A DNA stretch of 59,011 nt, filler included, from Dirinaria sp. TL-2023a (taxonomy: Eukaryota): NCBI GenBank assembly GCA_051941275.1. It is 9 parts of 9 records of this genome, joined end to end, with 100 filler letters (N's around TTAATTAATTAA, not from the genome) between each part and the next. Parts side by side here need not be neighbours in the genome. Positions count along the whole stretch, not along the records: positions 26,307 to 32,775 come from JAVEBF010001475.1; 8 more parts are not named here. One strand, given 5' to 3'. The position numbers and the translations under genes are program-made. How positions within the stretch are numbered: position 1 is the stretch's first letter; each line of letters starts with the position of its first letter. Positions 28,781 to 32,775 of the stretch are shown piece after piece. The notes below the pieces were generated by a model. That model was not told where the DNA came from. It saw only the letters and a list, made by a program, of their open reading frames with translations, and ran no database searches.

Positions 28781-30549
28781 TTAACGAGGGAGTGAGCGCC
28801 ACTGCTTACAGATTTCGTGCAATGGCCCGATCACGTCCTGGCACACGGCACCCCAAAACTTGCTGTCTTCCCAGTCACAAAAGCGAGCTTCTTTGCATAT
28901 CATCCCACGAATGCAATGAGACACAGCCCTTTCATAAAGGTCGGGGACCGGGTTGCTCATATCATCTAACCACTCCATCGCTAGCGCAAGGCGCTGATAA
29001 TACCCAAGGGGGCCTTGATGTCCGGGAAAGTGCATCTCCAAAGTCTGACGATTCCAGATCTCTAGGAGCAATATTCCGAGCTCGAGAAAAGCTGCTTTGG
29101 AATCTATATGTTGTATTTGAGCATTAGCACCCTCGCTATTGAATGTGAGCGATATGAACGGCCGGGTAAAGTCATATTGGCCGCCAGCAGCATCAGGCCG
29201 TCGAAGGAAAAAGACTTTTTCTTTCGACCATGGTGGCTGTAGCCACGGCGTTCGAGATAGTTGGAGGAGATTTGAAGCTAACCCCAGGGCCAGCATCATC
29301 CGGGGCTTCAAGGGGAAATTTGCTCTTTGAACAGTTGACTCGGTATCGCTGAGGAGTGTCTTTAAAGGCATCTTTTCCGTATGATCGCAAGCTGCTAAGG
29401 CATTTTTTGAGCTTGCTACCATACCCATTCTTTGATCCTTGGAGAGAACTAAAGCAACTTGTTTCTGATCGCGGCTAATTGATCCTAGCACGGCACAGAT
29501 GTCATTGACAAATGGTATTTCTGGTCTTGTTGAAGGAATATTGGACAGAGCTAGAGTCACCCGAGTAGTCCGATAGATTGATGGCTCATATGATGGGTTA
29601 GGATCGTCATACGTGAGATCACAGGGCACTTTCACTGTAGCTTCGTGCCATGACGGTCCTCTTGGAGGTGAGCTTGCCGCGAAGATTAGTTGGAAGCCCA
29701 TCGTGGAGAAATCGCCATTACTTCGGACGCCTTTGAAGGTTTTTGCTGCATTCTCAATTCGGTCTTCAAGGAGGAGCTTTGCTTCGTGGTTATCGTGACA
29801 GCTAGACTTCCAGGCTGTACGAATAGTTTGATGCAGCTCAATCGCAACGCGACGAGCTTGTCGAAGGCCCCTTCCGAGCGTCAAGGCTTTCCTGGATGAT
29901 AGTTGTTCAGCCGGTTGTTGGTTTGATGCGATCAAACTTGTCAGGCGGAATAGGCTATTTGCAGTACTATCAAGATCTTGTATGGCTTTATTGATTTCAC
30001 TGGCGCTGAACAGCAGCTTCACCCTGGGGATAAAGTCTCGCCAACCTCGATCCTTATCCTGGTTGACGCCAATTATTTGATGTAAGTCGTCTGTTGGGCC
30101 CTGTTCTTGACACGTAAGCGGCAATAACATCAAAGCACATGCAGAAACACATTAGGGCTAACCTCAGTCATAGGCAAAAGGTGACTAATATTTCGGGCGA
30201 CACGTCGCACAGTATCATAGCTTTGTCCAAGAGTCTCACTTAGTACGTAAAGGTTGCTTGAGCCTAAATGCGCTAGGACACTTTCTTGCACGTGAGTGTC
30301 AGTCAAACACTCATAGGGGGTTTTATCAAATTCTATGATGTTATTGCAGCCGCTTTGAGTAAGTATTGCTTTGACGATCTGTGCAAGTGTTTCTTGCTGA
30401 AGGATGAGTGCCAGGGTCAGCTTGTTGACGACTGCCTTCTTTGGAAAGAAGATTTTGCTTGTTTGAATTCCGTCCTTGTACAATTTAATAGCTTCAATGA
30501 GTATCGGCAGAGCGCCAAGCACAAGACCTGCAACCTCCAATCCCGAAAT
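28781..30549 (-). CDS. HeLo-like N-terminal domain + degenerate kinase-like (DUF7580-type) C-terminal domain; 568 aa if started at ATT 30549; no in-frame ATG start
   Basis: N-terminus (I)SGLEVAGLVLGALPILIEAIKLY. Intron 30162-30101 (GTTAGC..AACAG) keeps the frame. C-terminal RMMLALGLASNLLQLSRTPWL, FLELGILLLEI, YERAVSHCI. Confidence 0.8.
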
Positions 30550-30763
30550 TATCGCAAGAGGATGATAAGATTGAATGAAGTGGGAAGGGTTATTGTGTGA
30601 AGGCAAACTCTAGCGTGGTGTCAAGATCAGTGCGCTCAGCCTTGTGCGGGGCTCGGCTTATCGTAATTGGTAATCTCCGCTGCACCGCTGTGGTCTTTCT
30701 ATCTCAATGAAATTTCGGTAGAAGCGGGGTTTTGATGTACTAGATTCTTAGCATGATAGAGTC

Positions 30764-32775
30764 ATGATGGAACCTAGTGCATTGAAAAGCTTACATGAGG
30801 TGGGAATCGAGATCTTGAAGTTGTTCAAGCGAGTCAAGGGTATTGATGCTACGACTGACAGTGGTTGGCCGCATGCTGCTGTTGCAGCCGAAGCAGATCG
30901 CTTTGAGTTTTGGAGCGTGAACTTGGGCTTGTTTGTTCCAGGGCATGGATCTCTAGAATATCGACTTAGACAAGCCGAGGGTTTAAAAGATACGATTAGA
31001 ACATTTCTGAGCAGCTTACATGCAGCATTGGAGGAAGGTGAGTATTAAGACCGAACTTGTCATTCATGGCTGACAGGCATCTACGCTAGTCTTTGCATAC
31101 TGGGCAAGCGAGGAGAGTGTTTCAGCTCAGGAGTCTTCCGACGATGCAGCGGAACAAACCCGAGAGGTCGGTGTTTTCGAAGACGAAGATGATCTCCAAG
31201 ATTTAGGCTCAGACGTGGACCTACTTCTGGATAGTTTAAAAGATCCAATCGACCGGCTATACAAAATCTCGACATGGATTCGTAATCCATCTTCTAGATT
31301 TGCCTCGTCGAAGGCTCTACGTCACCAGGAGATCGATATCGAAACCAACGTTGATTTGCTTCAAGTAGTTGCAAAATTCGACTACGACTATGTCAGCTCA
31401 ATCTTCTTACAGTATAAAAAGACTAGGGCACTCAAGGGGGAACTAAATCCCAGGCCACCGATGCAAGTAGTTCAAGACGAAGGTGCTGACAAAGTCTGGG
31501 AACCAATTCAGTCCGTCCTTTCGGAGCATCGGTCGGACATTTTGAGGCAAACCGAGTCATTTCTTGTGCGTCGAATAGCTCGAACAAATGTTCTCCGAAG
31601 ACAACAATTCGCCTACTGGAAAAAACATCGAGACAAGATCAGTCAACATTCAATGACGGTCACGCAGCTTGTTGAGCTTGGCGGGGATCCGAAACGGAAT
31701 GAAATATCGCTGGAAACAGGTCCTAGAAAGCCTCCGCAAACGACGATGGTACCTGCAGCGCCTTCAATTACGACTGCAAGCAATCTTCAACTATCCCAGC
31801 TGAGGATCAAGGATGGCGAATCTCAAACTTATGTCTCTGAGTATGCGCCCTCGATGTCTAGTCTCGGTGAAGAAATTGTAGATTTTCCACCGCCACCAAC
31901 ACACCCGTCGGGCCAAAAATTCTTTGAATGTCCGTACTGCTTTACTCTGTGTCCAAAGGCGACATTGGGCCAAAAGGCGTGGAAGTAAGTTCTCTGCAAA
32001 TAGACTGGTCCTTCTAAGAATGGGCTGTTAATACACTATGTAGAGCGCATCTTGTACACGATCTGCGGCCCTATATATGTACATATGAAAGTTGCAAAAA
32101 CCCAGATCAGCTGTTCGACACGCGTCAAGACTGGATACGACACGAGAATACGCATCGAAAAGCCTTTCATTGTCTTGAGCATCAAAATCAAGCATTCAAT
32201 TCCCGCAGCGATCTTGAGGCACGTTTGCAGCGCGAACACAGCGATATTAGTCGCAAGACCTCGGAAATATTTATCGAACACGCTAGCGATTCGGTTCCCA
32301 CGCAGTCAGACAGAAACTGCCCGATATGCTTGTCATCCATAAGTAGTCTAAGGATACTACAGAATCACATTGGACTTCATCTAGAGCGCTTCTCTTTGTT
32401 CGCGCTACCCAAGAATGTCAACGAACAAACAGATGAACTTGAAGGAGCGAGCTCGCATAAAGCCAACATCGCAGCCGATGATTCCCGTGCCGAAGACTTC
32501 GAAGCCGATATGACCTTCGCTGAAAACCTTGATTTCGAAAATTCTGATTCAAAGAGCTCTGCGTCGGACGCTGTATTAGACCTTCGATCCGGGAAAAGTG
32601 AATTGGAGTTAAAATATGATCAGGAGCTGATGGAGAGCAGAAAGAGGGCGCTTGGAGAGGAGCATCCCGACACACTGATGAGCATGGCTGATCTGGCATC
32701 GACATATCGAGCAGAAGGTCAATGGCAAAAGGCCGAGGAGCTGCAGGTGCAGATTGTAGAGACGAGAAAGAGAGT
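30764..32775 (+). CDS. Fungal helical N-terminal domain + C2H2 zinc-finger cluster + kinesin-light-chain-type TPR repeats; 3'-truncated
   Basis: Exons 30764-31037, 31090-31984, 32044-end join in frame. Motifs DRFEFWSVNLG..GHGSLEYRL, IDRLYKISTWIR, RRQQFAYW, FECPYCF..WKAHLVHDLRPYIC, CPIC..HIGLHLE, then ALGEEHPDTLMSMADLASTYRAEGQWQKAEEL. Confidence 0.88.

Follow-up and report, generated by a model that had tools for sequence, protein, structure and literature searches.

Can a receptor without a nucleotide-binding oligomerization domain (NOD) be genetically locked to a membrane-directed executor of cell death in filamentous fungi? This question is raised by two divergent genes at positions 28781–32775 of a 59,011-base stretch of DNA from Dirinaria sp. 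TL-2023a (assembly GCA_051941275.1), referred to in its full length as the window. The minus-strand gene encodes a protein of the Pfam family DUF7580 with an N-terminal helical domain, and the plus-strand gene encodes a protein with C2H2-like zinc fingers and tetratricopeptide repeats (TPR); after the roles proposed for them, they are called the executor and the sensor gene, respectively. As described in the original prediction, which was made from the sequence alone, the genes are divergent with starts 214 bp apart, and the intergenic region separating the first codons (30550–30763) presumably serves as a shared promoter. Considering linkage, modelled structures and known systems together, the locus may represent a conserved NOD-less sensor/executor module of filamentous ascomycetes for regulated cell death of the necroptosis type, a reading to which an even chance is given here.

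Linkage and predicted contact of the two families

When metagenome contigs were scanned with the DUF7580 alignment, 29 loci were identified, in which partners were sought with the conserved 540–560 residues of three sensors. A member of the sensor family lies within 2.8 kb in 18 of the 19 loci that extend 1 kb or more upstream of the executor start, and 15 of these 19 show a short-range head-to-head arrangement with gaps of 220–914 bp (260 bp in L001; 244–262 bp in L003, L004 and L017; 220–228 bp in L008, L009 and L026; 232 bp in L011; 289 bp in L018, L019 and L027; 659 bp in L014; 914 bp in L012, L015 and L016). Gaps of 220–262 bp are found in five locus groups besides the window. Furthermore, the two genes of L023 are arranged head-to-head at a distance of 2749 bp, and those of L005 and L006 lie in tandem. 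An additional locus with 532 bp upstream, L002, shows the first 90 residues of the sensor at 262 bp, and the 19 partner-bearing loci (the 18 and L002) comprise 10 distinct sequence groups. The remaining nine loci are uninformative, with less than 750 bp upstream or a missing executor 5′ end.

Consecutive locus tags are carried by the two proteins in six named genomes, namely those of Glutinoglossum (006263/006264), Penicillium brasilianum (11157/11156), Aspergillus mulundensis (00706/00707), Pleurostoma (4735/4736), Trichoderma arundinaceum (9734/9733) and Pyrenula (008318/008317), and in six further genomes both proteins are located on equally long contigs. The genomes with the pair span the Geoglossomycetes, Eurotiomycetes, Sordariomycetes, Leotiomycetes and Lecanoromycetes, and other matches occur in the Orbiliomycetes and Dothideomycetes. 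Across 13 representative loci, clustering of 879 open reading frames (ORFs) of at least 70 amino acids revealed no third conserved gene, all families present in at least three loci being located inside the footprints of the two genes in sense or antisense orientation. Loss also affects both genes: in L001 (7934–11794) the pair has decayed together, with 16 in-frame stops in the executor and 10 in the sensor gene, between AT-rich flanks (GC 0.30–0.37) resembling the products of repeat-induced point mutation, and in L018, L019 and L027 C-terminal fragments of both genes alone remain, 289 bp apart. The two genes are kept together, usually over a short divergent promoter region, and their adjacency is far beyond chance. 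The expectation, set beforehand, that the families stay head-to-head while the C-terminus varies is borne out by these data, with adjacency in 18 of 19 loci, mostly head-to-head.

A direct contact between the two proteins is predicted for a natural pair from A. mulundensis, in which residues 1–451 of the sensor P0101 were co-folded with the executor P0036 (549 residues), co-folding having been suggested as a check in the original prediction. Three runs gave ipSAE values, which express the model's own confidence, of 0.73, 0.72 and 0.73, as opposed to 0.01 for the best of three controls, with a partner predicted local distance difference test score (pLDDT) of 72–73 and agreement between runs in at least 60% of contacts. 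In the calibration, 51 of 78 solved complexes attained the mark applied here, as did 2 of 108 mismatched pairs. Sequence searches found no solved relative for either protein, and the model is therefore unlikely to have reproduced a known complex. In the confident interface, sensor residues 77–98 and 123–151 meet executor residues 32–57 and 160–184 (P0101 and P0036 numbering). On the sensor side it corresponds to the helix after SLDYRVREAE and to the DPIDRLYKL helix, which are helices 3 and 4 of an N-terminal bundle, together with a few finger residues (412–426), and the executor contributes helix 2 of its N-terminal domain and the first of two long “brace” helices. The predicted interface helices map to exon 2 of the window sensor. 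The model thus predicts direct bundle-to-bundle and brace contact.

Architecture of the executor and the sensor

The executor gene consists of exon 1 (30163–30552, minus strand), with 130 open codons for the N-terminal helical domain, a 62-nt GT..AG intron (30101–30162, minus strand), and exon 2 (28781–30100, minus strand), whose 439 codons (30100–28784, stop at 28783–28781) encode the brace helices and a DUF7580 pseudokinase-like domain. The exon junction between ..LLPMTE and GPTDDL.. is colinear with 35 full-length relatives, and the intron position is kept, followed by GT, in all nine loci checked. The same junction is used in the deposited model P0001, a hypothetical protein of 442 amino acids from a lichen-fungus metagenome-assembled genome, which is identical to the product of the minus-strand gene. 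Exon 2 matches DUF7580 (PF24476) over profile positions 5–316 of 319 (E 2.8e-30), its 106.5 bits exceeding the cut-off of 27. This family is matched by 36 of 37 alignment members and by all of the 94 executor relatives, the full-length ones having 548–606 amino acids. In an AlphaFold2 model that was built for P0010, the closest full-length relative, from a 37-row alignment (pLDDT 80.3, predicted template modelling score 0.67), the N-terminal region comprises helices 3–28, 32–66 and 85–121 and some short ones, followed by the long brace helices 162–194 and 199–225, a beta-rich lobe (233–287) and a helical lobe that extends to residue 576. As modelled, the executor therefore has the layout of MLKL, with a bundle, then braces and then a pseudokinase.

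The best row of a Foldseek search with this model is the tetramer of the full-length plant MLKL3 (AtMLKL3), a weak match at E 9e-3, and the remaining rows are almost all protein kinases or pseudokinases, pseudokinase domains of MLKL included. A VAIK-type Lys, HRD or DFG is found nowhere among the invariant or nearly invariant columns of the executor alignments A1 and A4 (32–37 sequences). By model and alignment, the C-terminal part of the executor is a protein-kinase fold without conserved catalytic motifs. Scattered over the pseudokinase, both alignments also show invariant Cys and His residues (C229, H230, H233, C320, C510 and C545 in P0036 numbering), which could form a metal site or disulfides.

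The N-terminal domain contains SGLEVAGLVLGALPILIEAI, encoded at 30546–30487 on the minus strand, and the translation of exon 1 includes IISGLEVAGLVLGALPILIEAIKLYKDG. In all 19 loci examined, the first helix of the executor is hydrophobic, rich in Gly and Ala and placed at the very N-terminus. No Pfam family is matched by exon 1 of the window executor at E≤1, and the DUF7580 part has no match in a PDB sequence search at E≤10. A profile of the N-terminal domain found 1179 representatives at E≤0.001, the best 150 of which are short fragments or proteins of about 430–624 amino acids; no NLR-sized protein (NOD-like receptor, NLR) with this domain is among these 150 matches listed. Nineteen odd-sized matches that were scanned contain DUF7580 or no family. 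Fused or longer DUF7580 proteins (770–2195 amino acids) were not found, in a search that is weak evidence.

The sensor gene starts with ATGATG at 30764. Exon 1 (30764–31037, plus strand) encodes the first bundle helices and the RFxxWxxNLG..SLEYRL motif (DRFEFWSVNLGLFVPGHGSLEYRLRQ). It is followed by intron 1 (31038–31089, plus strand; 52 nt, GT..AG), which corresponds to a joint at 31035>31088 in an RNA contig (cut +2). Exon 2 (31090–31984, plus strand) completes the helical domain (DPIDRLYKISTWIRNPSS, RRQQFAYWKKHRDK) and continues through a disordered linker into finger 1, of which it encodes the first half. Intron 2 (31985–32043, plus strand; 59 nt, GTAAGT..TAG) lies outside the RNA contigs and was placed between ..KAWK and AHL.. 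by the frame change and by colinearity with relatives. Exon 3 (32044–32775, plus strand) encodes the remainder of finger 1, fingers 2–4 and an acidic linker, continues with the first TPR at about 32672 and is open at the contig end. The four C2H2-like fingers extend from FFECPYC... to ...CPICLSS...HIGLH. The LGEEHPDTL sequence lies within a match to TPR_10 (E 1.5e-9, 38 bits, cut-off 27.5) and TPR_12 (E 9.4e-9, 35.8 bits, cut-off 30.1) that covers residues 189–243 of the exon 3 translation, the last 55 before the contig end at 32775, which cuts the gene inside this first TPR. The 632 visible residues contain no NTPase of the NACHT or NB-ARC type. Likewise, no NACHT or NB-ARC accession occurs across the rows of 65 sensor relatives (two of them incomplete), nor in the full P0096, P0097 and P0098. 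The features first read from the sequence, namely an N-terminal hydrophobic helix and a pseudokinase in the minus gene and an RFxxWxxNLG..SLEYRL domain, several C2H2 fingers and an LGEEHPDTL TPR without an NTPase in the plus gene, are all present where they had been placed, the missing NTPase with the proviso that it concerns the visible part of the window sensor and the rows of its relatives.

A search with sensor exon 2 retrieved the 65 longer relatives at E 3e-94 to 5e-21. PF26082 (zf-C2H2_AcuF), whose finger block has the pattern CPYC...HxxxDLxPYxC, is precomputed in 64 of these, and the window aligns with them through the invariant Cys and His columns; no local Pfam scan reported this family, and in the window sensor the finger block is split by intron 2. 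In a model of the relative P0098 (pLDDT 69.5), helices 10–26, 40–57, 74–101 and 136–163 are followed by more helices up to residue 300, a disordered region (296–363), the finger block (377–519), a linker and then the TPR. An exhaustive structural aligner (VIA) placed residues 5–164 of this model on four-helix bundles of the coiled-coil/four-helix-bundle (CC/4HB) type among the matches listed. According to these models the sensor itself opens with an N-terminal four-helix bundle, a point that goes beyond the original prediction. No family was recovered for sensor exons 1 and 2 by Pfam at loose thresholds, and no named family for the first 300 residues by the ESM Atlas. An hhalign comparison of the N-domain profile of the executor (A3, from ten exon-1 translations) with the sensor alignment (A5) gave a probability of 0.3%, and the two bundles are therefore not detectably related.

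The conserved part of the sensor stops shortly past the finger block, and the later sequence differs even among fairly close relatives. In L003 and L008, the executors are 57% identical; the sensors share 59% identity as far as residue 469 of the L003 ORF and are unrelated from there on. The L003 tail consists of two EH domains, an EF-hand and an HMG box, and that of L008 is DUF3384, the N-terminal domain of tuberin (E 7e-90). Both tails lie in one uninterrupted ORF with the finger block and thus are not gene-model fusions. Further tails carry TPR and ankyrin (ANK) repeats (L012), ANK repeats (L014) or WD40 repeats (L005). By Pfam, precomputed or re-run, TPR tails occur in 14 relatives, WD40 in three and ANK in four, one of which also has TPR; the other tails annotated by Pfam comprise PNP_UDP, annexin, SH3, RRM, Sec7, PAH/BAG, FHA/Myb, ARID, Forkhead/KIX, PHD and GATA domains. 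The seven WD40 units of P0097 share a mean identity of 75% among themselves (64–90%), and such a highly self-similar pattern is typical of the hypervariable repeats in fungal NLRs. In P0095, the partner of the Glutinoglossum executor P0010, residues 696–985 form a PP1-type phosphatase (E 8.7e-125, about 60% identity to yeast PP1-2) with five altered motifs (GDIHG to GDIRG, GDYVDRG to GNFDGRA, GNHE to GKHE, HGG to SSG and RAHQ to RGNQ), which are the metal-binding and catalytic positions of the PPP family. With all five replaced, this copy is well preserved but dead, and it looks as an integrated bait would. A duplicated host-protein domain without its activity motifs is represented by P0095, and the tail of the window sensor itself is of the TPR type. 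As judged from these domain assignments, copies of ordinary cell proteins occur among the variable tails besides repeats, which likewise had not been anticipated.

Mechanism, rival readings and the local copy

If the predicted contact reflects a resting heterocomplex, helices 3 and 4 of the sensor bundle would pack on helix 2 and the first brace helix of the executor. An event at the variable tail of the sensor, for example when a foreign molecule binds or a bait domain is attacked, would then alter this clamp, and the N-terminal bundle of the executor could be freed or clustered and damage the membrane, with regulated cell death of the necroptosis type as the putative outcome. Membrane attack by MLKL and HeLo proteins, the mechanism behind this proposed action, is treated in the available sections of a recent review (PMC12881547). 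A more specific version, in which the pair would be an ancient immune module similar to plant sensor/helper systems without an NLR, and in which a baited sensor would clamp the MLKL-like bundle until an effector hit leads to necroptosis-like death, is put forward tentatively and is considered rather doubtful. The same tentativeness applies to the assignment of the dead PP1, the tuberin N-domain, the EH/HMG, annexin and SH3 domains and the hypervariable WD40, TPR or ANK repeats as baits.

Several observations weigh against a sensor/executor module. The original prediction had assigned the N-terminal domain of the executor to the HeLo/HET-S type, and this membership finds no support in the profile searches made: none of the 37 executor members matches Pfam HeLo (PF14479), the HeLo-like PigL_N (PF17111) or SesA at E≤1, and a PDB search with the profile A3 gave chance matches only (E≥0.16), with no HET-S or MLKL chain. 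What points in that direction is a language-model lead in the ESM Atlas, in which the N-terminal 130 residues fall close to a cluster with 29% HeLo members (score 0.95, 181 shared features) and to a PigL_N cluster (0.89), together with the weak Foldseek match to plant MLKL. Against the PDB, Foldseek returned nothing at E≤0.001 for the executor model or for the sensor model. The co-fold score is the model's own confidence, obtained without alignments and for the pair of another species. Furthermore, no partner lies within 10 kb to either side of L022, a divergent paralogue with 29% identity, the pair is apparently ancient and roughly single-copy (e.g., one per Trichoderma species), and nuclear or chromatin domains (HMG, ARID, Forkhead, GATA, PHD and PAH) make up many of the fused tails, some of which may be gene-model fusions. 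Two properties of the local executor copy, its initiator codon and the conservation of its first exon, belong to the same side and are described below.

As a general fact most adjoining genes are unrelated, but the adjacency in 18 of 19 informative loci, the six consecutive tag pairs, the lack of any other conserved neighbour in the clustered loci and the joint decay leave chance neighbourhood without a functional link a virtually negligible probability. A non-lethal regulatory pair, in which the sensor would be a zinc-finger nuclear or scaffold regulator targeted by its tail and the pseudokinase an adaptor or allosteric partner, is the main rival, although rather unlikely. The C2H2 fingers are conserved, one relative carries the name “similar to transcription factor Zn, C2H2,” and the DNA- or chromatin-related tails listed above are joined by Myb; the age of the pair and its apparent number of about one copy per genome suit a housekeeping regulator no less than an immune gene, the executor gives no HeLo profile match, and pseudokinases are commonly scaffolds. 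This explanation is countered by the hydrophobic, Gly/Ala-rich first helix at the extreme N-terminus in 19 of 19 loci, by the MLKL-like layout with its weak best Foldseek match and by the predicted contact, which grips exactly the N-terminal bundle of the executor; moreover, tails as different as the dead PP1, the tuberin N-domain, annexin, SH3 and NLR-type WD40 repeats are hard to fit to one job. The tight linkage, the predicted binding to the presumed killing domain of the executor and the decay of both genes together would also suit heterokaryon incompatibility or a toxin-antidote pair, in which the sensor neutralizes the executor, mismatched alleles or loss of the sensor kill, and no foreign molecule is sensed. 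Known fungal incompatibility systems are indeed adjacent pairs, as far as the available sections of PMC12881547 and PMC9815663 describe them. However, the pair is conserved across classes of the Pezizomycotina instead of being patchy, and the exchange of whole tail domains looks more like receptor diversification, so that this explanation is given a small probability.

For the copy in the window, it is a distinct possibility, short of an even chance, that the executor lacks function or its N-terminal head, in which case the product would be the 442-residue brace-plus-pseudokinase protein of the deposited model or nothing. The sequence here is ATA ATT TCG GGA (I I S G), where relatives have ATG TCG GG. 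(M S G), and ATT at 30549–30547 thus stands in the place of the ATG, whereas Met is first in all 19 metagenome loci matching from residue 1 and in the aligned full-length proteins. The frame is closed upstream by a stop at about 30610 without an ATG in between, and the next in-frame ATG is codon 76 (30171), the start of the deposited model, which is preceded by out-of-frame ATGs at 30314 and 30218. The mean identity to 35 relatives is 38.4% for exon 1 as opposed to 39.5% for exon 2, a conservation ratio of 0.97 compared with 1.08–1.14 in four intact members. On the other hand, exon 1 is open over all of its 130 codons and, in the reading of alignment A1, retains 12 of 13 nearly invariant positions, a single-base error is conceivable in a contig of a metagenome-assembled genome, the RNA contigs of the sole run found do not reach exon 1, and AUU and AUA are usable as weak near-cognate starts. 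Because ATT replaces ATG, the local executor is either a low-level product from a near-cognate start, or disarmed, or mis-assembled.

One small lichen metatranscriptome run contains five contigs that are 90–95% identical to the locus (from a relative at about 93%) and cover 28600–29121 at the executor 3′ end and 30730–31179, 31215–31402 and 32381–32538 in the sensor. The spliced joint 31035>31088 indicates that the sensor sequences, at least, stem from RNA of a close relative. A second RNA joint, 30797>30860 (62 nt, GT..AG; 30800–30861, plus strand), would take out conserved coding sequence of sensor exon 1 and alter the frame; a non-productive splice form or, at a depth of about 3, an assembly artefact may lie behind it. 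Within the intergenic region, CCCGCTTC is located at 30728–30721 on the minus strand. The motif CCCGC[CT]TC occurs on the executor strand upstream in 6 of 12 loci (about four independent groups), at 137–277 bp upstream of the executor start in L010, L011, L014, L022 and L023, and with a total of 22 matches on both strands of 167 kb; L003 and L008 carry the variant CCCCGCTCC. It may be a shared cis-element, a pattern too thin to build on.

The window is composed of nine contigs of 6481, 6480, 6475, 6470, 6469, 6467, 6465, 6456 and 6448 bp, ordered by falling size and derived from a fragmented assembly. They are joined by eight N44-TTAATTAATTAA-N44 linkers (6482–6581, 13062–13161, 19637–19736, 26207–26306, 32776–32875, 39343–39442, 45908–46007 and 52464–52563), which amount to sixteen N44 runs and give stops in all frames. 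As the window is a concatenation, features of separate pieces cannot be assumed to be neighbours. The gene pair lies wholly within the fifth piece (26307–32775), which also carries the NB-ARC NLR noted earlier on the same contig, in the form of a fragment of two exons (26308–27290, minus strand) that runs off the contig start, in tandem with and downstream of the executor gene. Pfam NB-ARC is matched at 26308–26838 (E 4.2e-9) and weakly by the P-loop part (26790–27290); GVGGVGKTE is readable in the fragment. This gene was considered as a member of the module and rejected, being found at none of the 12 other representative loci. A repeat search detected, in the interval that separates the NLR fragment from the executor 3′ end, a foldback inverted repeat resembling a miniature inverted-repeat transposable element (27737–27837 and 28121–28222), whose arms are 85% (27737–27795/28164–28222) and 93% (27797–27837/28121–28161) complementary around a 283-nt spacer.

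The other contigs of the window carry ordinary fungal genes. These encode a methyltransferase (5159–6088, plus strand), a Yme1-like AAA protease (9113–11044, minus strand), a 2EXR/DUF7730 protein (12112–12801, plus strand), a PARP with WGR and regulatory domains (17232–18998, plus strand), two sugar transporters (20006–21136 and 37474–39139, plus strand), a GH12 glycosidase (24438–25400, minus strand) and a Cep57/PPC89-like protein (42547–44312, plus strand).

Comparison with known systems

Regulated cell death in fungi is now explained by two modules, in which NLRs act on HeLo proteins via amyloid motifs or proteases cut gasdermins. The pair offers a concrete candidate controller of another kind, a receptor that lacks a NOD, is firmly tied by genetics to an MLKL-like gene across the Pezizomycotina and is predicted to bind its product. 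If this is true, it would supply the missing controller for many fungal helical-bundle executors without amyloid motifs. If the swapped tails are baits, the pair would moreover be an integrated-decoy system on a non-NLR receptor and its tails a natural catalogue of cell proteins attacked by the enemies of fungi. The pair is represented in laboratory species, e.g., by a sensor homologue of Trichoderma reesei QM6a (P0141), by Podospora relatives and in Aspergillus species, and the claim is therefore open to ordinary genetics. No paper was found in the literature searched under the name DUF7580, nor any description of its pairing with a zinc-finger protein in the available parts of the literature, supplementary tables lying outside the search. 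In the available sections of a 2025 review, some HeLo-like domains are reported on kinase or pseudokinase proteins and called “reminiscent of MLKL,” with no controller named there (PMC12881547).

With MLKL and AtMLKL1–3, the executor shares a single chain with a helical bundle, two brace helices and a TKL-type (tyrosine kinase-like) kinase fold without catalytic motifs, AtMLKL3 being the top match, if a weak one, over the full executor. In contrast to MLKL, the executor shows no detectable sequence similarity, and its N-terminal bundle consists of modelled helices and is a candidate match to the 4HB known there. The activator would not be a kinase such as RIPK3 but the neighbouring zinc-finger protein, and the predicted contact involves the bundle and a brace, not the activation loop.

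The systems het-S/nwd2 and HELLP/PNT1 resemble the pair, as far as the available sections of the literature describe them, in that a sensor gene adjoins a gene with an N-terminal membrane-type helical domain and that the sensors carry TPR, WD40 or ANK repeats. Unlike these sensors, the one described here has no NOD or NTPase, and most executors of the family end at ..CKQWR right after the kinase fold without an amyloid tail. No shared amyloid motif of the HRAM (HET-s-related amyloid motif), PP or sigma type was found, given that the executors mostly end at ..CKQWR and that hhalign of the N-domain against the sensors gave nothing, in a comparison made without a dedicated motif profile. Coupling would differ as well, being by a predicted helix-bundle contact and not by amyloid templating, and the executor has a pseudokinase. 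In fungal gasdermin/protease systems, according to the available sections of PMC10197012, the regulators often carry TPR, WD40 or ANK repeats and a NOD or none. The cluster het-Q1/het-Q2 thus shares with the pair the two-gene organization and the often repeat-bearing regulator, as described in these sections, but its executor has another fold, no protease is present in the pair and nothing here suggests activation by cleavage.

RGA5/RGA4 and RRS1/RPS4 are head-to-head sensor/helper NLR pairs of plants with integrated decoys. Such pairs share with the one described here the divergent orientation on a short common promoter and the presence of exchangeable domains resembling host proteins in one partner, e.g., the catalytically dead PP1. 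They differ in that neither partner here is an NLR, that the executor is MLKL-like and that a decoy role of the tails would be by analogy. Head-to-head sensor/helper pairs of the plant type are described in general terms in the available sections of PMC12258605, according to which head-to-head NLR pairs are rare in Sordariales, with 13 of 225 two-NLR clusters. Taken together, the pair is best read as a two-gene sensor/executor cluster, which is set apart from these systems by its NOD-less sensor and its DUF7580, MLKL-like executor.

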